Shown here: piece by piece, positions 1,544 through 61,268 of the stretch | Numbering within the stretch: position 1 is the stretch's first letter | Layout: each line of letters starts with the position of its first letter | Source of the DNA: Candidatus Hinthialibacter antarcticus | GTDB lineage: Bacteria; Hinthialibacterota; Hinthialibacteria; Hinthialibacterales; Hinthialibacteraceae | DNA: 64,000 nt | Assembly (NCBI GenBank): GCA_030765645.1 | Contig: JAVCCE010000074.1 | Coordinates: 41,551 to 105,550, forward strand | Reading direction: 5' to 3' | Position numbers and translations under genes: made by a program | Notes under the pieces: model-generated | Database searches by the model: none | What the model saw: only the letters and a program-made list of their open reading frames with translations | Told to the model about the DNA's origin: nothing

Positions 1544-3889
1544 TTAATACGAAATGAAACTGGGAGCGCCCGGCTCAATGCTTTGCGGGCGGCCCTTTGG
1601 CCCCATCAGCTGAATGCCGATCTGGATGCCGAAGTCATCGCCAAGCGTCGGATGGTTCTCATGCTCCAACTCAATCGTACCGAAGAAGTCATACATATTG
1701 CGCATCAGCCCGATGGTATTGCGGCGGAAGCGCTCTTCATCGAGGTCGAATCGCATTTCATAAAACAGCGCCCATTTGTTGGAGACGTCCCAATTGAGGC
1801 GCACCGAAGCGTCTTGTTGCTCATTCAAATTCAAAAACGGATAGCGGAAGGTGTAGTAGCCAATCGACAACCGTGCACGATCCATGATGTTGAACTGCGA
1901 GAAATAATATTGCGACCGCATTTCTTCGTCGTCGATGTCATAGCGCAGGTTGCCGCCCAGCGTCCACCAGGCAAACGGCATGATGGCAAAGTCATGCAGC
2001 AGGTCAGAAAACCGCTGGTCGTTTTCTTCGGCGATGTCTTCATAGAATAAAAAATTGTCGAAGCGCAGGTTCTCATCGGGGAACACTTCATACGCAAACC
2101 CCACCGATGCGCGTAAGAAATCAGACGTCGCGCCATTGGCGTCTTTGCCCTGGACGCGGGCGCGCAACATCGTTCTCACGCTGTGCATCTCGGCGCGAAA
2201 ATCATCAAGCGGGTCTACATACGGAAAACGCCCGCCCGCCGGGGTGGTTAGTTCTTCCAGGTCGGTATCCGGCAGGTAGTAGCCATATTCAATCGCGGGT
2301 TCAAACAAGACGCGCATTTTTTGATAGCGGTCTAAGAACGGGTCAAATTCCATCGTGCGCCGCGTCGAGAGGTTCATGCCGGTCTGCGCCATCAAGCGCG
2401 ACTCGGAGCCAAAATCAAACCGCTGCAGCGACCCGGTCAGCGGATCGTTTGACAACCGGTGCGCGTCCTCATACATCGTTGCGCGGTAGCCGATCCACGG
2501 CTCCAGCGTGAAGCGTTCGGGCAGGTAGAAGGGATACGTTACTTTGCCGTCGGCGTCATAGCGGGTGAATTTATCGACGAACTCGGTCTGTTGATAGAGC
2601 GTGTATTTATCCAGCGGGAAGGTGATTCCCTGTTCGCGGTTGTAGCGGCCATAGTCAAGCGACATGCTGCCGTACAGCCCGGTGTTGAACAAGTTGGTTG
2701 GATATTGTTCAGCGTGGACTTGGGGCTTGCGTTCAATATACGGCAGCCCGTTTGAATAAAACTCATCCAATCGCAGGGCGCCGGTGATGCGCACGCTCTG
2801 GTCGTCGAAGCGCTTGGTCAGGTTGATGTTTGAGGTCAGGTCGCGTTCCGACTCGCGAACGTCCATCTGGCGCACCCGCTCAGGCGAGCGGTAATCGTCG
2901 CGATATTCAGAGTCGGAAAACTTGTGCCCCTTCACGGTAAGGCGCATGTCGTACGGCAGTTCCTGGGCGTATTCCACCGCCATGTGATAGCGGTCGTCGC
3001 CGTCAAAAATGCGGTCGTTGTCAGGAGCTTCTTGTTTGATGTGGTAGCCGTAGACCTGGCCTTCGGGGCCGTATTCACCGTCAATATCCCATTGGAATTT
3101 CGCGCCCTTACCAATGCCCGCCTCGGTGTGGTAGTCGCCGTAGAGGTCGATCATATATTCGTCGCTGGGGACAATGTTGACTTTGTTGAACGCCACAAAG
3201 CCCAAGCGCGAATAGTGCGCCGCCCAGATGTAATAAGCCACCTTGTTTTCACGCAGCGATTGCGAATAAAACGGCAGGTAGGCCATCGGCATAAACTGGG
3301 TGTAAAACACCATGTCATACAGCCAGTAGCGGGTATTGGGTACGACCACCAGACGGTCAAACTTAAAGTAGTAATAAGGATGGGGCAGATCGTTTCCGGT
3401 CACGCTGCCGTTGAACAGGGTATATTCGCGGATGGTCTCTTTGCCGTCGACGGTTTCGAGCGACCCCGCCTGACGCGGTTTGTATTCAAGCCGCTCGCCT
3501 TTGAAATAAAAACCTTCGTTCAGTTCGGCGTCGAGCACCGTCCACAAGGTGCCAGTATCGTTTCTCAGATCGGCCCACATGCGGTCGCCGCGTAGAATGC
3601 GTCCGTTTTCCCACAATTTCACATCGCCGGTGGCGCTGAGAATTTCGTCAGTGGACTGATATTCGATCACATCGGCGGTGATGGCGGTCTTGCCTTTGGA
3701 GAGCGTCGCTTGTTTGCCTGCGCTGCCCGTAATGATGAGCGAATCGCTGTTGACGACGTACTCGACCTCGCCCTTGATGATTTCAACTGGCGCGTCGGCG
3801 GCGGTCGAGAGAAAATCCTGTGCGGCGGCTGGCAGCGACAACGCAGCCAGACATATAAATAACGTAGAGAACCGAATAGACAAAATCAC
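1544..3889 (-). CDS. lptD: LPS-assembly outer-membrane protein LptD (OstA family).
   Basis: 781 aa. Signal peptide 'LAALSLPAAAQD'. The N-terminal OstA-like region reads 'ITADVIEYQSTDEILSATGDVKLWENGRILRGDRMWADL'. The C-terminus is large, aromatic-rich and beta-barrel-like. Confidence 0.7.
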   Translation of the reverse strand: MILSIRFSTLFICLAALSLPAAAQDFLSTAADAPVEIIKGEVEYVVNSDSLIITGSAGKQATLSKGKTAITADVIEYQSTDEILSATGDVKLWENGRILRGDRMWADLRNDTGTLWTVLDAELNEGFYFKGERLEYKPRQAGSLETVDGKETIREYTLFNGSVTGNDLPHPYYYFKFDRLVVVPNTRYWLYDMVFYTQFMPMAYLPFYSQSLRENKVAYYIWAAHYSRLGFVAFNKVNIVPSDEYMIDLYGDYHTEAGIGKGAKFQWDIDGEYGPEGQVYGYHIKQEAPDNDRIFDGDDRYHMAVEYAQELPYDMRLTVKGHKFSDSEYRDDYRSPERVRQMDVRESERDLTSNINLTKRFDDQSVRITGALRLDEFYSNGLPYIERKPQVHAEQYPTNLFNTGLYGSMSLDYGRYNREQGITFPLDKYTLYQQTEFVDKFTRYDADGKVTYPFYLPERFTLEPWIGYRATMYEDAHRLSNDPLTGSLQRFDFGSESRLMAQTGMNLSTRRTMEFDPFLDRYQKMRVLFEPAIEYGYYLPDTDLEELTTPAGGRFPYVDPLDDFRAEMHSVRTMLRARVQGKDANGATSDFLRASVGFAYEVFPDENLRFDNFLFYEDIAEENDQRFSDLLHDFAIMPFAWWTLGGNLRYDIDDEEMRSQYYFSQFNIMDRARLSIGYYTFRYPFLNLNEQQDASVRLNWDVSNKWALFYEMRFDLDEERFRRNTIGLMRNMYDFFGTIELEHENHPTLGDDFGIQIGIQLMGPKGRPQSIEPGAPSFISY

Positions 3890-5324: not shown

Positions 5325-5487
5325 CCTAATATTCCTTTCAAATGAATACCCCCGCCGCAAGCAGCGGGGTATCAAATCAAGTATTTATAGTGCTTGTCAG
5401 AATACTATGCGGATTGATCTTTCATAACTGTATCCATCGCTGAGCCCTACGGGCGCGCTTCAGGTACATACTATTTGACAAACGCTT

Positions 5488-5676
5488 TTGAAGCCATCTC
5501 AAAAATACTTGACCTTCGCTGCGTTTGGCATGTGTACAACTTTGCTCGCTTCAGTGCGGGCTTTCAGGCCCTTTTGCACAGGCGCTCCCAGAGTTGCACC
5601 CATGCCTGAGACGACTTGTCAATTTTTGATCGGTCGGAATCCCATTTCGTTATCAGTATTTTTGAGATGGCTTCAA
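5488..5676. mobile_element. MITE-like nonautonomous element bounded by perfect 22-bp terminal inverted repeats (TTGAAGCCATCTCAAAAATACT).
   Basis: 5488-5509 is the exact reverse complement of 5655-5676. The interior carries the 80-nt repeat unit also found at 35344-35423 and 60944-61023. No clean target-site duplication was seen. Confidence 0.45.
5527..5606. repeat. 80-nt structured repeat unit, copy 1 of 3, with imperfect terminal inverted repeats GGCATGTGTACAAC / GTTGCACCCATGCC.
   Basis: Its reverse complement aligns at about 85% identity with 60944-61023, and at lower identity with 35344-35423. The ORF-track 'proteins' 5488-5715 and 60877-61209 share a peptide only because they translate this repeat. 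Confidence 0.6.
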
Positions 5677-6335: not shown

Positions 6336-6356
6336 ACCTGCCTGCGGCAGGCAGGT
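6336..6356. repeat. Palindrome ACCTGCCTGCGGCAGGCAGGT, copy 1 of 3 (others at 35264-35288 and 60839-60857).
   Basis: Perfect hairpin. The same CCTGCCTGC-N-GCAGGCAGG core recurs twice elsewhere, each time embedded in repeat clusters. Confidence 0.6.
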
Positions 6357-10203: not shown

Positions 10204-10382
10204 CTCAAAAAGCAATGTCATTGACTTAAGGGGTGGCAAGCCAAGGCGTCGCGAAGTGAGGGCAGACCTTGATGCAACGAAATCAAAAATATCAGCCCTG
10301 TAGGGGCGCAACGTGTTGCGCCCGAATCCCCCCTTATAAAAGAGGGGCTAAAAGTCTTAAGTCAATGACATTGCCTCAAAAA
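10204..10382. mobile_element. MITE: 163-bp element with perfect 19-bp TIRs (GCAATGTCATTGACTTAAG), flanked by an 8-bp direct target-site duplication CTCAAAAA.
   Basis: TIR-L 10212-10230 and TIR-R 10356-10374. TSD copies lie at 10204-10211 and 10375-10382. The interior holds a REP-like GGGTGGCAAGCCAAGGCGTCGCGAAG (10231-10256) and a GGGCGCAACgtgtTGCGCCC hairpin. It sits in the accA upstream intergenic region. Confidence 0.55.
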
Positions 10383-14120: not shown

Positions 14121-14331
14121 GGATGCGCTGTTGCGAAAAAAAGTAACCATCTCAAAAACAATGATGACGAAAAGGGCTACGACGAATTAGAGCGTTTGAC
14201 AAAAGACTGTGCGTTAAGCGCGCCCGTAGATCTCAGCGATAGATACAGTTATGAAAACTCAATCCTCACTTCCATTCGGTTATCAGATTTGGTAGGGTGA
14301 ATGGATACTGATTCAAGCCAAAGGACCAATT

Positions 14332-16987: not shown

Positions 16988-17050
16988 GGTCGGGCGGCAA
17001 GCCAAGACGGCGCGAAGTTCGCCTCGGCGAACAGCCCTTGCCACCCGACC
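16988..17050. repeat. REP-type long hairpin GGTCGGGCGGCAAG...CTTGCCACCCGACC between convergent genes.
   Basis: 14-bp arms with one mismatch. The interior 'CCAAGaCGGCGCGAAG' matches REP motif 1 (GGCAAGCCAAGGCGTCGCGAAG) seen at 10231, 18301 and 19226. It likely also acts as a terminator. Confidence 0.6.
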
Positions 17051-18290: not shown

Positions 18291-18388
18291 CTGAACCTAG
18301 TGGCGAACCAAGGCGGCGCGCAACGGCGATAACTCTTGAGATAGGGTGGCAAGGGCAAGAACGAGCAGAGCGAGTTCAGCCCTTGAGG
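18291..18388. repeat. REP array immediately 3' of the RAYT gene.
   Basis: Contains motif 1 (TGGCGAACCAAGGCGGCGCGCAACGG) and motif 2 (GGGTGGCAAGGGCAAGAACGAGCAGAGCGAGTTCAGCCCTTGAGG). 18322-18386 is identical to 19250-19314. Confidence 0.7.
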
Positions 18389-18389
18389 G

Positions 18390-18947
18390 TTAGGCTTCCC
18401 AGTATTCCCACCAGCGATCAACTCGAAAGACTTTGTCATCATCTATTTCATAATTTCTAAAACTTGAATGAGGCCATTGACCGGGAGAATTGACAAGCCT
18501 TCGTACAACAGGGTTCTGATGGCAGTATGTAAGTTTCTCAATTAGTTTTTCTTGTGTGAATATATTAAAATCATAGAAACGCTCTTGCCACAATTTATTT
18601 TCTTCAACGCCCTTTTCTCGAAACGCTTTTAATACATTGATCGAAACATACCATTTTAACGCGCCTACAATTTTCGAAATTGGTTGCTCTTGTTTGGCAG
18701 CAAGTAAAAAATGCGCATGTTCAGGCATAATGACATACCCAAAAACAAAAAACTCTTTTTTATTGCGAATATGATCTATGGAATGAAGAACGATTTTGCG
18801 AATTTCAAATGAGTCAAAAAACGGTTTTCTTTGACAGCATGATGTAGTTACAAAATGAACGTGCCCTTTTTCGTTAATGCGAACAGGATGAACCTTGTTC
18901 TTGAAATCAGGATTCAGTAATGACGAATCGTGTTTTTTTAAATTCAT
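18390..18947 (-). CDS. REP-associated tyrosine transposase (RAYT, TnpA-REP; IS200/IS605 Y1 HuH family).
   Basis: 185 aa. 'GHVHFVTT' is the Y1 N-terminal motif. 'MPEHAHFLL' is the HuH motif. 'LTYCHQNPVVRRL' holds the catalytic Tyr upstream of NPV. Lower GC than surroundings, with REP arrays on both sides. Confidence 0.8.
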   Translation of the reverse strand: MNLKKHDSSLLNPDFKNKVHPVRINEKGHVHFVTTSCCQRKPFFDSFEIRKIVLHSIDHIRNKKEFFVFGYVIMPEHAHFLLAAKQEQPISKIVGALKWYVSINVLKAFREKGVEENKLWQERFYDFNIFTQEKLIEKLTYCHQNPVVRRLVNSPGQWPHSSFRNYEIDDDKVFRVDRWWEYWEA

Positions 18948-18975
18948 TTTAGACTTAAAATACGATGAAAGATTG

Positions 18976-19012
18976 CTTCAAGGGCTGGCCTTCGGCCTTG
19001 CCCTTGCCACCC
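18976..19012. repeat. REP (reverse orientation) immediately 5' of the RAYT gene: CTTCAAGGGCTGGCCTTCGGCCTTGCCCTTGCCACCC.
   Basis: Reverse complement of the motif-2 ends (GGGTGGCAAGGGCAAG...GCCCTTGAAG) with a different central loop. Confidence 0.65.
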
Positions 19013-19220
19013 AACATCCCTGAAAAAGAAAAACCCACCGAAGTAAGCGTGCAAAGCAGAGGCCCGGCGGGTGTACTAACTATAATATTACAAACATACA
19101 CGCAAATGTCCACGGTTATTACCATACACTTTAGGAAAACATATTTAAAACGTGCGAATTAAACACAGTGTAAACAAATATCAAGTATTTGAATAGCATA
19201 AAAATGCCAAAGAATAAGAT

Positions 19221-19316
19221 GAGCCGGGTGGCGAGCCAAGGCGTCGCGAAGCGGCGATAACTCTTGAGATAGGGTGGCAAGGGCAAGAACGAGCAGAGCG
19301 AGTTCAGCCCTTGAGG
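19221..19316. repeat. REP array (motif 1 plus motif 2), a near-duplicate of 18301-18388.
   Basis: GAGCCGGGTGGCGAGCCAAGGCGTCGCGAAGCGGCGATAACTCTTGAGATAGGGTGGCAAGGGCAAGAACGAGCAGAGCGAGTTCAGCCCTTGAGG. Confidence 0.7.
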
Positions 19317-19415
19317 TAATTTGCATTGAATTTGACATAGAGAAAACAAGTAAAAACAAAACCGGGGAAAAGCAATTCGCTCTCCCCCGGTTGGTTTTCG
19401 TATGCCTTTTTCCCG

Positions 19416-22495: not shown

Positions 22496-22697
22496 CACCG
22501 CAAACAAAAATCTTGTGTTAGACAAAAAAACAGATAGCCTAAAAGTAGAAAATCAGCTATTGACTAGATTCAATCCGCGTGTAATTTACGCGCAAGAACA
22601 CTCGCCGAATGAAACGGCGGGAAGCACAGGAAATCATTAGATGATCTCACCCTACAGACGACCCTACCGTAGGCTGGGAGATCAGAGGAGAGCGGCC

Positions 22698-23129
22698 ATG
22701 CAGACAGTCCATCCGCGGTTGAGGAACGCAGTGGTTCCAGTTCAATTCTTCGTCGCAACAAAACTTACAGAAAGCGCAGTCGCCATTTGGTCGGTTGACC
22801 CAAGCGGTCAGGTACAGCCCGCCTTGCTGGCGATTAACTATGAAAGCGATGAATCGCTTTCCTCTCCTGACGACGTGATCTTCTCGGATTGGGACAATGA
22901 AGATGACGACTATGACTACGACGATGGTTTAGATGACGACCTCGATGACGATGACGACGATGATCTGGACGACGACGACGACGACGATGATGACGATGAT
23001 GATGATGATGACTTAGATGACGACCTCGATGATGATGACGACGACGAAGAGGACGAAGATGAAGAGGACGGCTTCGATGACGACATTGACGATATCGAGA
23101 TTGGCGCCGATGACGAAGATGAATTTTAG
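22698..23129 (+). CDS. Extremely acidic Asp-rich (poly-D) low-complexity protein, 143 aa.
   Basis: GAGGAG SD with a 7-nt spacer before the ATG at 22698. The C-terminal 95 aa is about 70% Asp/Glu ('DDDLDDDDDDDLDDDDDDDDDDDDDDD'). GAT/GAC codons alternate. A strong terminator follows directly. Confidence 0.5.
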   Translation: MQTVHPRLRNAVVPVQFFVATKLTESAVAIWSVDPSGQVQPALLAINYESDESLSSPDDVIFSDWDNEDDDYDYDDGLDDDLDDDDDDDLDDDDDDDDDDDDDDDLDDDLDDDDDDEEDEDEEDGFDDDIDDIEIGADDEDEF

Positions 23130-29400: not shown

Positions 29401-29462
29401 TCACATCTCCAATCGTTCAAGGTTCTGTAGCGATTGTTAAACGATGTTCGGTCAGCGCGCCC

Positions 29463-29520
29463 GAAGGGCTTCGCGATAGATCAATTGACGAAAACTCAAT
29501 CCGAACACAAATCTGACAAC
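29463..29520. repeat. 58-bp dispersed repeat, copy 1 of 2 (the other at 60865-60920, about 80% identity).
   Basis: GCGATAGATcaattgacgAAAACTCAATCCGaACACaaaTCTGaCAACCACTATAAAA read against GCGATAGATaccgttacggAAACTCAATCCGcACAgtatTCTGgCAACCACTATAAAA. Confidence 0.55.
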
Positions 29521-29553
29521 CACTATAAAAAAGAACCCGACCGACGCGAGAGG

Positions 29554-33643: not shown

Positions 33644-33714
33644 GGCGGCTTAGCCAAGTGGTAAGGCAGAGGACTGCAAATTCTCTATCCCCGGTTCGAA
33701 TCCGGGAGCCGCCT
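33644..33714 (+). tRNA. tRNA-Cys (anticodon GCA).
   Basis: Acceptor stem GGCGGCT/AGCCGCC, D-arm 'TAGCCAAGTGGTAAGGC', anticodon stem GAGGA/TTCTC with loop CTGCAAA, T-arm CCGGGTTCGAATCCCGG, discriminator T. CCA is not encoded. Confidence 0.85.
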
Positions 33715-35080: not shown

Positions 35081-35252
35081 TGTTTTTCACCGATTTAGTC
35101 GTTGGGGAATTTCGTATTAATGAAGAAAACAGGAATAAAAAACAGTATTTCACCAAATATTTTTCAAACTTCAGTCCCCCATTTTAAACCCCACCCATAG
35201 ATGTCTCATATCGTAAAAATAAAGTCAAGCACTTTTTTTGAAAAACAGATTT

Positions 35253-35316
35253 CTTCAAGGGCTGAACCTGCCTGCGGCAAGCAGGTTCGCTACGCTCATT
35301 CTTGCCCTTACCACCC
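35253..35316. repeat. REP (motif-2 ends, reverse orientation) with the CCTGCCTGCGGCAAGCAGG palindrome inserted in its loop.
   Basis: CTTCAAGGGCTGAACctgcctgcggcaagcaggttcgctacgctcATTCTTGCCCTTACCACCC. Its ends match 18976-19012 and the reverse complement of 18345-18388. Confidence 0.6.
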
Positions 35317-35343
35317 CGCCATTGATACGAGTTTACAGTCCTG

Positions 35344-35423
35344 GCGTGGGGGCGCCTCTGTGAGCGCCTGTGCAGAAGGGCATGAAAACCCGCACCGAAG
35401 CGAAAAGAGACGTACCCACGCCA
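35344..35423. repeat. 80-nt structured repeat unit, copy 2 of 3 (terminal IR GGCGTGGG / CCCACGCC).
   Basis: The core 'GGGGCGCCTCTGTGAGCGCCTGTGCAGAAGGGCATGAAAACCCGCACCGAAGCGA' aligns with 60957-61005 and the reverse complement of 5545-5593. Confidence 0.55.
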
Positions 35424-58951: not shown

Positions 58952-58974
58952 CCCGACCTCGGATGAATGATGCG

Positions 58975-59330
58975 TTTCAAGTAGGGTGGCGTTGAGCGCA
59001 GCGAAACCCACCAATAGAAGCGTATCGAAAAAGCGCATCGAAAACCAAAGGTGGGATTCATTGCATTCATCCCACCCTACGGGGGCTGCTTAGATTGATC
59101 CCCCCAGGTGATTATGAAACCAATCCCGTCGCGGTGAATGCCCCCCTTGAAAAAAGGGGGGTGGCGCTGAAAGCGCCGGGGGGATTCGGGCGCAACACGT
59201 TTTCTTTTCATGCGGCTCACCAGGAGGTTCGCCCTCCCCAGATCATTCAATATATTGGTGGGTTATTATCTACCGCTAATGATGATTGAAACATTGCATG
59301 GTGGGCTGTTCGCGCGAGCCCACCCTACCA
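58975..59330. repeat. Cluster of GGTGGG...CCCACCCTAC hairpins downstream of pyrG (58975-59005, 59071-59102, 59299-59330).
   Basis: GGTGGGATtcattgcattcATCCCACCCTAC and GGTGGGCTgttcgcgcgAGCCCACCCTACC are paralogous hairpins. The first, 'GGGTGGCgttgagcgcaGCGAA', resembles REP motif 1. Confidence 0.45.
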
Positions 59331-60741: not shown

Positions 60742-60838
60742 TTTCAACGCCTACTTACCAGTGACGAAACGCAACCAGCGGGCTATTGTATGCGACTAGA
60801 ACGTTTGTCAAAAATATGTGCATAAAGCGCGCCCGCAG

Positions 60839-61023
60839 CCTGCCTGCTGCAGGCAGGGGCTCAGCGATAGATACCGTTACGGAAACTCAATCCGCACAGT
60901 ATTCTGGCAACCACTATAAAATAACCATCTCGAAACCAATTTCGGCATGAGTGCAACTGTGGGAGCGCCTGTGTAACAGGGCCTGGAAGCCCGCACCGAA
61001 GCGAGCAGATTTGTACACATGCC
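60839..61023. repeat. Composite repeat cluster: palindrome CCTGCCTGCTGCAGGCAGG (60839-60857), the 58-bp repeat (60865-60920) and the 80-nt unit copy 3 (60944-61023, inverted relative to copy 1).
   Basis: Each sub-element has paralogs elsewhere in the window, at 6336/35264, 29463, and 5527/35344. Confidence 0.55.
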
Positions 61024-61268
61024 TTTCGCAGCGAATGAGCAAGTAGCATTTAGCATTGAGATGGCGTCTTGGGTTCGCGTAATACAGTCTGCCTGCGCAT
61101 TCAGTCGCAGGGGATTGGGTGGAGCAGCTTTCGGAGTCAGCGGCAATAAGCCGCGACGGAGACAAGCGGAATCCAACCCCGAGATTGAATGCGTCGCACA
61201 AGAACGCACGATTCTATAAAATTACTTTTTTACGGCATTTTCTGAAGGAGCGGGGAGTTATGCCAGAC

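Follow-up and report, generated by a model that had tools for sequence, protein, structure and literature searches.

In the MAG of Candidatus Hinthialibacter antarcticus, a 64,000-nt stretch of DNA, referred to here as the window, very probably carries a REPtron, that is, a RAYT gene, present once in the window, lying between its cognate REPs. RAYT, also known as TnpA-REP and placed in class 2 of TnpA-Y1, is a HuH/Y1 single-strand DNA nuclease-ligase, and REPs are short palindromic repeats that are thought to be spread by RAYT. Systems of this kind are well documented from Proteobacteria, Cyanobacteria and a number of other phyla, and the present locus is an ordinary instance of this known system, found in an uncultured Antarctic-lake bacterium of a little-studied phylum. 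A first-pass annotation of the window had proposed a RAYT with bracketing REPs, a reading that is borne out by the family cut-off, the flanking hairpins and the dispersed copies described below. The locus was found to be identical across three independent assemblies.

The RAYT gene occupies 18390-18947 on the minus strand, encodes 185 aa and is identified by family profile, structure and fold matches. In the profile search that had been proposed as a check, the ORF scored 110.6 bits against NCBIfam NF047646 (REP_Tyr_transpos), above the curated cut-off of 80, and 51 bits against Pfam Y1_Tnp, while its 34.2 bits against the transpos_IS200 equivalog remained under the cut-off of 55. The best sequence match in the PDB is E. 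coli TnpA-REP (4er8), for which residue roles were taken from PMC3479197; in this alignment H77 and H79 correspond to H59 and H61, Y141 to Y115, and N145 to N119. The HuH motif is H77-A78-H79 and the catalytic Y141 is paired with N145 (Y-x3-N-P), with W120-Q121 and D126 also present; H77, H79, Y141 and N145 are invariant in an alignment of 13 relatives, and two guide- or metal-binding residues of the E. coli enzyme are not conserved (H123 is R149 here, and R104 is F130). The Y1 HuH architecture claimed earlier thus stands with respect to the Y1 fold, the HuH motif and Y-x3-N-P, but the segment 'HVHFVT' that had been cited for it is strand beta1 and not the HuH motif. An AlphaFold model of the protein (pLDDT 87) has 4er8_A as its top fold match (E = 7e-10, TM 0.66/0.73, 162 aligned columns), and this chain outranks all IS200/IS605 transposases in the fold search, most of which align over 113-135 columns. 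As modelled, the protein has the TnpA-REP fold, including the C-terminal extension. The nearest relatives of its clade are 52-57% identical to it, and the protein database contains a single 100%-identical cluster for it, under a record that names the gene simply 'transposase'.

Two REPs in inverted orientation abut the gene on either side, with their tails directed toward it. The downstream REP (18344-18388, plus strand), a B-type copy recognized by its hairpin and by the covariance model, runs antisense to the gene, with a tail that stops 1 nt from the stop codon; the upstream REP (18976-19012, minus strand), also of the B type and with the inner hairpin GGCC-GAA-GGCC, lies in sense orientation with its tail ending 28 nt ahead of the ATG, and its earlier assignment as an inverted copy was exact. 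The anatomy of these repeats is readily described: a 5' GTGG stands directly before a 7-bp stem (CAAGGGC/GCCCTTG), which is followed by a 2-nt AA bulge and a variable inner hairpin, so that the downstream copy is laid out as GG-GTGG-CAAGGGC-AA-[inner hairpin]-CA-GCCCTTG-AGG. In canonical REPs, by definition, a 5' GT[AG]G precedes a stem of 7 bp or more at a distance of 0-2 nt, a bulge and a second stem being optional (PMC3686654, PMC6006769), and the copies found here are REPs under this definition.

At a larger scale, the locus is bracketed by a 97-nt direct repeat (18292-18388 and 19220-19316, 90/97 identical), which confirms the earlier proposal of two arrays of about 96 bp. On either side of the gene, the repeat joins two REP subtypes head to tail. 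The left array begins with an A-type unit that has a decayed head, TAGTGGCGAACCAAGGCGGCGCGCAA, and a linker (18292-18343, plus strand), and ends in the downstream flanking REP; the right array begins with an A-type unit, GGGTGGCGAGCCAAGGCGTCGCGAAG (from 19226), and its linker (19220-19271, plus strand), and ends in a second B-type REP (19272-19316, plus strand) that is identical to 18344-18388. The longest perfectly identical stretch of the two arrays is 65 nt (18324-18388 = 19252-19316); an identity of this length had been noted before, although at 18322-18386 and 19250-19314, a range that contains a mismatch (18323/19251). Perfect identity over the last 65 nt of the array speaks for a recent event, either copying or gene conversion. 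The upstream REP is separated from the right array by an AT-rich spacer (19013-19219, GC 0.357).

Repeats of this kind occur in the window above the level expected by chance: the motif GGGTGGCAAGGGCAAG, when up to three mismatches are allowed, has 5 matches versus 0.59 expected, and the 26-nt second head, GGGTGGCAAGCCAAGGCGTCGCGAAG, has 3 matches versus 0.00 expected. A search of the repeats against Rfam returned no family. With a covariance model trained on 60 copies (reporting threshold E <= 10), together with head and hairpin comparisons, three loci in the window besides the RAYT locus were found to carry a REP, and all supported copies in the window are intergenic. The strongest of these matches (43 bits) is a B-type REP with the head GGGTGGTAAGGGCAAG at 35253-35316 on the minus strand, in the loop of which a 19-nt palindrome is nested; it lies downstream of a carbamoyltransferase gene and upstream of rmuC, instead of after rmuC as previously stated. 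At 16988-17050, between the convergent SGNH and prepilin-type genes, a compact inverted doublet of the 'double-foot' form joins an A-type head on the plus strand to a B-type head on the minus strand in a 63-nt hairpin (z = -4.1), and this doublet falls under the reporting threshold of the covariance model (E <= 10). The third copy, a degenerate A-type REP at 10229-10286 on the plus strand, about 100 nt upstream of accA, combines an exact 26-nt A-type head with a weak hairpin and is a weak match to the model (16.7 bits, E = 0.03).

Three of the four recurrences listed in the first-pass annotation are therefore recovered (35253, 16988 and, weakly, 10229, given there as 10231), but the fourth, at 58975, is unsupported: its match falls short of significance at about 9 bits (E about 4), only a GGGTGG head is shared, and 58972-59080 is a separate inverted pair of hairpins of about 30 nt. 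The hairpin family had also been characterized as GGGTGGCAAG...CTTGCCACCC; this full palindrome exists in a single copy (16992-17046), whereas the other copies pair CAAGGGC with GCCCTTG and leave the head unpaired. An additional covariance-model match at 224-280 (E = 0.075) was discarded because it lies inside a 488-aa ORF.

The same repeats were identified well outside the window. A scan of genome contigs revealed at least 50 exact REP copies on five contigs of a related MAG of about 7 Mb, and about 30 degenerate copies were present in the 441 kb of related-MAG loci that were sampled. When open stretches are defined as at least 150 codons, they cover 81% of the related-MAG bases examined, and 55 of 61 exact copies in related MAGs fall outside them; the REPs are thus almost exclusively extragenic. 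Doublets were also seen at loci L071 and L053, and an unrelated contig of the same lake metagenome contains a doublet, the remaining copies being mostly singlets or head-to-tail pairs. Four Streptomyces matches from the genome-contig scan lie inside long ORFs and were set aside as 31-nt coding coincidences or homologues, not REPs. In a scan of JGI metagenomes, the pattern of the source subfamily was found on four contigs only, two of which look like chance matches (about 60% GC and no hairpin tail).

These distributions bear on whether the repeats are simply the product of a local duplication around the gene and not a dispersed family, a reading that could draw on the clustering of copies near the gene: of four strong B-type copies, three fall inside 1.1 kb of it, as do two of four A-type heads. 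This is most improbable and is already contradicted by the dispersed copies, since intergenic regions of the window that are unrelated to the RAYT locus contain REPs at distances of 16 kb, 1.3 kb and 8 kb from it, in addition to those in the related MAG and on the unrelated lake contig. Confinement of the repeats to this locus, which the first-pass annotation had named as grounds for abandoning the RAYT/REP reading, was accordingly not what was observed.

Seven related RAYT genes in other assemblies (L065, L066, L067 and L072-L075) have the same inverted REP-gene-REP layout, and across the resulting eight loci the REP stem co-varies with the RAYT lineage. Compensatory changes convert CAAGGGC/GCCCTTG to CCAGGGC/GCCCTGG, CAAGGGG/CCCCTTG or CAAGGGT/ACCCTTG, and the inner stem covaries among the related-MAG copies as well (15 doubly changed cells versus 2.7 in shuffles). 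In the related MAG, a full-length 186-aa orthologue of the RAYT is annotated as a 116-aa fragment. At the level of sequence, the eight loci keep the GTG[G/C] head and differ by compensatory changes at two positions of the stem, a pattern that fits a system in which the enzyme may recognize the guide from its sequence and the stem from its shape.

If it works as E. coli TnpA-REP does (PMC3479197), the RAYT would bind REP hairpins in single-stranded DNA, recognizing the GTG[G/C] head together with the shape of the stem. Cutting would take place near the REP, with Y141 forming a 5'-phosphotyrosine and H77, H79 and N145 presumably holding a metal, and the enzyme would then rejoin the strands. The expected outcome would be the copying or rearrangement of REP singlets and doublets in extragenic DNA, with the RAYT gene itself remaining immobile.

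The terminator or mRNA-stability role that the first-pass annotation had proposed for REP copies at operon ends is not supported as stated. The intergenic positions of the copies, one of them between convergent genes, and the conservation of head and stem in several MAG species could also be accounted for if the hairpins were host RNA or DNA signals (terminators, mRNA stabilizers or protein-binding sites) whose adjacency to a transposase is incidental, and E. coli REPs do affect termination and mRNA decay (summarized in PMC6006769). Nevertheless, we regard this explanation as very unlikely. Each of the eight independent RAYT loci has its own matching REP variant on each side of the gene and in fixed orientation, which is not expected of generic terminators; moreover, no T-tract follows the hairpins, and copies are found in both orientations relative to the adjoining genes. 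The array at 19220-19316 also comes after a separate, strong hairpin resembling an intrinsic terminator (19360-19392), which belongs to the gene upstream. Apart from that hairpin, scans for promoter and terminator consensus sequences around the RAYT gene gave matches at chance level, including one sigma-70-like match in the spacer 19013-19219 (19112 to 19085, minus strand), no more than chance would provide.

The AT bias of the RAYT gene is the sole feature of the locus that a specialist might find unexpected. GC content is 0.357 in both the ORF and the spacer, compared with 0.59-0.62 in the arrays, 0.55 in the neighbouring gene and 0.534 in the window, and the GC3 of the RAYT gene is 0.31 versus 0.62-0.68 for accA, pyrG and the Gfo/Idh/MocA gene; GC3 values of 0.40-0.48 are seen for the SGNH, rmuC and hypothetical genes nearby. 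Low GC had been taken as a mark of domestication, an interpretation that is not supported: an ORF at 0.36 against 0.53 hints, if anything, at foreign origin, and the atypical composition sits uneasily with long vertical residence.

Conceivably, then, the low-GC segment of roughly 0.9 kb, comprising the RAYT gene, its leader and one 97-nt array, arrived recently as a cassette or can still move as one, although we consider this unlikely; its behaviour as an IS-like unit, or as one that integrates via recombination at the REP array in place of a fixed domesticated gene, is similarly doubtful. Besides the composition of the ORF and spacer relative to the arrays and neighbour, such a reading draws on the direct repeats bracketing the segment, which match perfectly over 65 nt, on the genes adjoining RAYT, which vary between the loci of relatives, and on the RAYT genes of those relatives, which have a GC content of 0.37-0.40 regardless of the flanking GC. 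A Logan contig of 958 nt corresponds to a 928-nt period plus 30 nt and forms a closed cycle in the k=31 assembly graph, but a cycle of this kind is expected from the 65-nt exact repeat alone. The ORF, furthermore, reaches the RAYT cut-off but not that of IS200, only one copy of the gene was found in the 64-kb window, with one 100%-identical protein cluster, and the two flanks are inverted copies of one REP instead of a left and a right end that differ and share a strand. Searches of viral contigs yielded neither RAYT nor REP, and searches of plasmids yielded only RAYT relatives, all below 30% identity; the diverged cognate REPs elsewhere in the window also argue for long residence. It is improbable that the 928-bp unit is a compositionally foreign cassette that came into the chromosome, or may yet leave it, through recombination or RAYT-mediated strand transfer at a REP array. 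If it were, a RAYT would carry itself between genomes along with its REPs and would not be strictly immobile or vertically inherited.

Read as a REPtron, the locus extends RAYT/REP systems to Candidatus Hinthialibacterota, a phylum described in a paper that says nothing of transposases or repeats (PMC9324843). From a practical perspective, short-read contigs break or cycle at these REPs, and the results can be used for naming the RAYT gene, mending the gene call and explaining contig breaks, while the eight RAYT loci offer a small, clean data set on how the enzyme may read guide and stem.

Among known systems, IS200/IS605 elements (IS608, ISDra2) share the HuH/Y1 fold and subterminal hairpins with guide tetranucleotides. 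The present locus differs from them in that the RAYT scores below the IS200 equivalog cut-off, is present once in the window and has no accompanying tnpB gene, and in that its flanks are one element inverted, with hairpins also dispersed without the gene; an IS200/IS605 insertion sequence was rejected on IS200 score, copy number in the window and end structure. The 'double-foot' long REPs of TnpA-Y1 subclass 2.4, in which a 5' GT[AG]G is matched by a complementary 3' foot (PMC6006769), are resembled by the doublet at 16988-17050 and by an abundant subfamily in the related MAG (GGGTGGC...GCCACCC), whereas the REPs flanking the RAYT of the window have no 3' foot and the HuH-to-Tyr spacing is 62 aa, compared with roughly 88 aa typical of that subclass.

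E. coli TnpA-REP (YafM) with its REP/BIME elements likewise combines a HuH motif, a catalytic Tyr, an Asn at Y+4 and a C-terminal extension with inverted flanking REPs that form imperfect hairpins and have a guide tetranucleotide at the 5' foot, and with more than one REP subtype at the locus. The two proteins are only about 20% identical, and the guide is GTGG here (GTGC in some relatives) but GTAG in E. coli; E. coli E100 is replaced by D126, a substitution reported for TnpA-Y1 subclasses 2.5 and 2.7 (PMC6006769), and the arrays are head-to-tail pairs of two subtypes, in contrast to the Y/Z inverted pairs of E. coli BIMEs. Compared with the RAYT-REPIN systems of Pseudomonas fluorescens (PMC3116915, PMC3686654, PMC5581495), the present one belongs to another phylum and a separate RAYT clade, with longer hairpins that contain a bulge and a variable inner stem, with window copies that are mostly singlets, and with a RAYT gene that is strongly AT-biased relative to its host. 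In both systems, however, the REPs are GTGG-headed (e.g., GTGGCGAGGGGGCTTGCCCCCG in P. fluorescens), a RAYT, found once in the window here, is flanked by its own REP class, which co-varies with the RAYT lineage, and the repeats are dispersed in extragenic DNA and form inverted doublets, as at 16988-17050 and L071.

The ORF at 18390-18947(-), which opens with ATG and encodes 185 aa, is a REP-associated tyrosine transposase (RAYT), in agreement with the Y1/REP-type assignment of the first-pass annotation. It scored 51 bits against Pfam Y1_Tnp, 110.6 bits against the NCBIfam equivalog 'REP-associated tyrosine transposase' (curated cut-off, 80 bits), and 34.2 bits against the IS200 equivalog, under the curated cut-off of 55 bits. 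Among solved structures, E. coli TnpA-REP (4er8) is the closest in sequence (E = 5e-5), and 4er8_A also led the fold matches (E = 7e-10 over 162 aligned columns) of an AlphaFold model of the protein (pLDDT 87, pTM 0.81), with the ISDra2, IS608, and IS200 transposases ranking behind it. In the 4er8 alignment, H77-A78-H79 ('PEHAHFLL') corresponds to the HUH motif H59-M60-H61, Y141 ('LTYCHQNPV') to Y115, and N145 to N119, residues whose functional roles in the E. coli enzyme have been described (PMC3479197); 'HVHFVT' (residues 29-34), previously read as the HuH motif, is instead the first beta strand. H77-A78-H79, Y141, N145, and D126 are unchanged across 13 relatives, of which only the closest keep W120-Q121. 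The protein differs from E. coli TnpA-REP in carrying R149 and F130 in place of H123 and R104, and D126 in place of E100, the last being a substitution reported in TnpA-Y1 subclasses 2.5 and 2.7 (PMC6006769).

The gene is flanked by two 97-nt direct repeats, a left array (18292-18388) and a right array (19220-19316), that are identical at 90 of 97 positions. All seven mismatches are confined to the first 32 nt, and the final 65 nt are the same (18324-18388 and 19252-19316); the perfect identity reported earlier is real, although its placement at 18322-18386 was 2 nt off and took in one mismatch. Each array consists of an A-type and a B-type unit, head-to-tail. The A-type head reads GGGTGGC(A/G)AGCCAAGGCGTCGCGAAG, decayed in the left array to TAGTGGCGAACC..., and the B-type unit reads GGGTGGCAAGGGCAAG-(variable)-CAGCCCTTGA(A/G)G; a third, inverted B-type unit lies at 18976-19012(-). 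Both types occur in the window far above chance (five matches to the B head with up to three mismatches versus 0.59 expected, and three to the 26-nt A head versus 0.00 expected). The two gene-adjoining B-type REPs are inverted to each other with their tails towards RAYT: the tail of 18344-18388(+) lies 1 nt from the stop codon, that of 18976-19012(-) 28 nt before the ATG.

Published work (PMC3686654, PMC6006769) defines REPs by a 5' GT[AG]G tag that stands 0-2 nt away from the base of a hairpin whose basal stem spans 7 bp or more; a bulge and a second stem may come next. In the window, the B-type layout, GG-GTGG-CAAGGGC-AA-(inner stem-loop)-CA-GCCCTTG-A, adopts the GTGG-headed stem/bulge/inner-hairpin form in single-stranded DNA folding, and the window repeats are canonical REPs by these published definitions. 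The terminator or mRNA-stability role first proposed for the REPs is putative: no T-tracts follow the REP hairpins. A strong intrinsic-terminator-like hairpin (15 pairs, then a T-run) at 19360-19392(-), just after the Gfo/Idh/MocA gene, is separate from the right array, which it directly precedes, and belongs to the upstream gene.

A covariance model built from 60 REP copies was run on the window and supported the three RAYT-locus copies (42-54 bits) and the copy at 35253 (match 35241-35318(-), 43 bits), with a weak candidate at 10229-10286 (16.7 bits). A 'GGGTGGCAAG...CTTGCCACCC' hairpin family had been said to recur across the window; the complete palindrome is present in one window copy only, 16988-17050, which has its A head and its B head on opposite strands and folds into a 63-nt hairpin (z = -4.1); in the terminology of PMC6006769 it would be called a 'double-foot' REP or a compact doublet. 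Of the copies proposed beyond RAYT, the one at 35253 is supported by the model and the one at 16988 by its two heads and its fold, the one at 10231 is weak, and the one at 58975 (about 9 bits) is not significant; a match at 224-280 (E = 0.075, inside a 488-aa ORF) was rejected. The 58972-59080 region, after the CTP synthase gene, holds an inverted, tail-to-tail pair of ~30-nt hairpins about 45 nt apart, of form TAGGGTGG-N16/17-CCCACC; nothing but the GGGTGG head links this pair to the REP family, so that it represents either a highly diverged REPIN-like doublet or something unrelated. All supported window copies are intergenic. The REP at 10229 lies upstream of accA, as originally described, that at 16988 between convergent SGNH and prepilin-type genes, and that at 35253 between a carbamoyltransferase gene and rmuC, that is, upstream of rmuC and not after it. 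Just downstream of rmuC is a tRNA gene (33644-33714(+); Rfam tRNA, 66 bits), the sole Rfam match in the window.

The exact RAYT protein is on record from the Candidatus Hinthialibacter antarcticus MAG (phylum Hinthialibacterota; Ace Lake, Antarctica; PMC9324843), and the locus is the same base for base in the JGI, ENA, and Logan assemblies. Seven related RAYT loci (L065, L066, L067, and L072-L075; 52-68% identity) were compared, and the order REP(->)-RAYT(->)-REP(<-) was found at every one whose flank is on the contig. Their REPs have a GTG[G/C] head and a basal stem of 7-9 bp that varies on both arms together: CAAGGGC/GCCCTTG in the window, L065, L072, and L074; CCAGGGC/GCCCTGG in L066 and L075; CAAGGGG/CCCCTTG and CAAGGGA/TCCCTT in L067; and CAAGGGT/ACCCTTG in L073. 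The pattern is consistent with sequence-specific recognition of the head and shape-based recognition of the stem, the mode demonstrated for E. coli TnpA-REP (PMC3479197). The orthologue in the long-read MAG CAXXMV01 (L065) is annotated as 116 aa from an internal TTG; its ORF is intact (186 aa, 2791-3351), opening with an ATG that lies 210 nt further upstream, and it covers the conserved beta1 strand.

A B-type pattern scan of a genome collection exclusive of the source genome returned 57 loci in four related MAGs, and five CAXXMV01 contigs (7.08 Mb in total) hold 50 exact matches. The usual form there, GGGTGGCAAGGGCAAGACCGCAWTGCGGTCAGCCCTTGATCAAGCCACC, is a double-foot hairpin (z = -7.7), and the subtype flanking the CAXXMV01 RAYT (GGGTGCCAAGGGCAGTGTCCTTTCTGCCCTTGA) is also dispersed. 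The inner stem of the related-MAG copies covaries (e.g., ACCGC/GCGGT versus AGCGC/GCGCT), with 15 doubly changed cells versus 2.7 in shuffles. The covariance model found 93 copies in 441 kb sampled, ~30 of them beyond the exact seeds, and 55 of 61 exact copies are not within the stop-free stretches of 150 or more codons that span 81% of bases. Four Streptomyces species (L011, L018, L033, L035) keep a 31-nt GGTGGTAAGGGCAAGGCCG.TCAGCCCTTGA matching the search pattern; these matches were rejected as REPs, being coding sequence within a long ORF.

The RAYT ORF has a GC content of 0.357 and GC3 of 0.31, compared with GC3 of 0.62-0.68 for accA, pyrG, and the Gfo/Idh/MocA gene and 0.40-0.48 for the nearby SGNH, rmuC, and 143-aa hypothetical genes. 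Low GC had been taken as a mark of domestication, a reading that does not survive, since relatives' RAYT genes are 0.37-0.40 GC irrespective of their flanks; the 207-nt spacer is as AT-rich as the ORF. The composition suggests transfer or a family-wide AT bias. A minority reading treats the 928-bp unit (RAYT, AT-rich leader with one REP, and one array) as a present or past mobile cassette, in keeping with bracketing arrays that match perfectly over 65 nt and with neighbour genes that differ at each relative's locus; however, no viral relatives were found, and all those on plasmids share less than 30% identity. A 958-nt Logan contig (SRR7528863; window 18324-19281) could also speak for a cassette. 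The contig begins and ends with one and the same 30 nt, and its length equals the 928-nt period plus 30, so it forms a closed cycle in the k=31 graph through the 65-nt identical stretch; yet an exact 65-nt repeat alone gives such a cycle in a de Bruijn graph. The cycle is probably an assembly effect, although a circular or tandem form would give the same.

Other repeats accompany the REPs in the window. Module Y, a ~80-nt intergenic hairpin (5515-5606(-), 35343-35423(+), 60944-61035(+); also L071 444-524 and L019 7461-7538 on two related contigs), has the consensus GGCRTG.G.GC...GAGCGCCTGTG.A..AGGGC.TG.AA.CCCGCAC.GAAGCGA...GTAC.CA.GCC, which folds with 23 pairs, three showing compensatory changes, and has no match in Rfam; two copies lie less than 40 nt from a REP. 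Module X, an intergenic repeat of about 105-125 nt (5384-5488(-), 14188-14269(+), 29426-29529(+), 60797-60920(+); weaker matches on contigs L019 and L020), has the consensus TAGARCGTTTGWCAAA...AAGCGCGCCCG..CTCAGCGATAGATAC.GTTA.GAAAACTCAATCC...CACTATAAAA, lies directly upstream of module Y in two cases, and may act as a promoter or leader or represent a MITE. The 19-nt palindrome CCTGCCTGCNGCAGGCAGG (6337-6355, 35267-35285, 60839-60857), with one copy nested in the loop of REP 35253-35316 and one within module X, seems to be a small hairpin that became inserted in other repeats. A 24-nt perfect inverted pair, AACGTGTTGCGCCCGAATCCCCCC and its complement (10310-10333 and 59178-59201, 49 kb apart), is another small repeat family; both intergenic regions also contain other hairpins. 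Lastly, GAC/GAT-rich repeats with a 12-nt period at 22893-23108, inside the ORF 22641-23129(+), encode a long acidic stretch rich in aspartate.

For the RAYT/REP locus, the analysis establishes the protein's family, fold, and catalytic residues, together with the anatomy, layout, dispersal, and co-variation of the REPs, and the initial overall reading of a RAYT with its cognate REPs is supported. On the model of E. coli TnpA-REP, the enzyme would bind REP hairpins on single-stranded DNA, cut them via a Y141 phosphotyrosine intermediate, and rejoin the strands, which may spread or rearrange REPs while the RAYT gene remains single-copy. The locus is a REPtron with GTGG-tagged REPs, of a kind already well known and newly described here for the phylum Hinthialibacterota.
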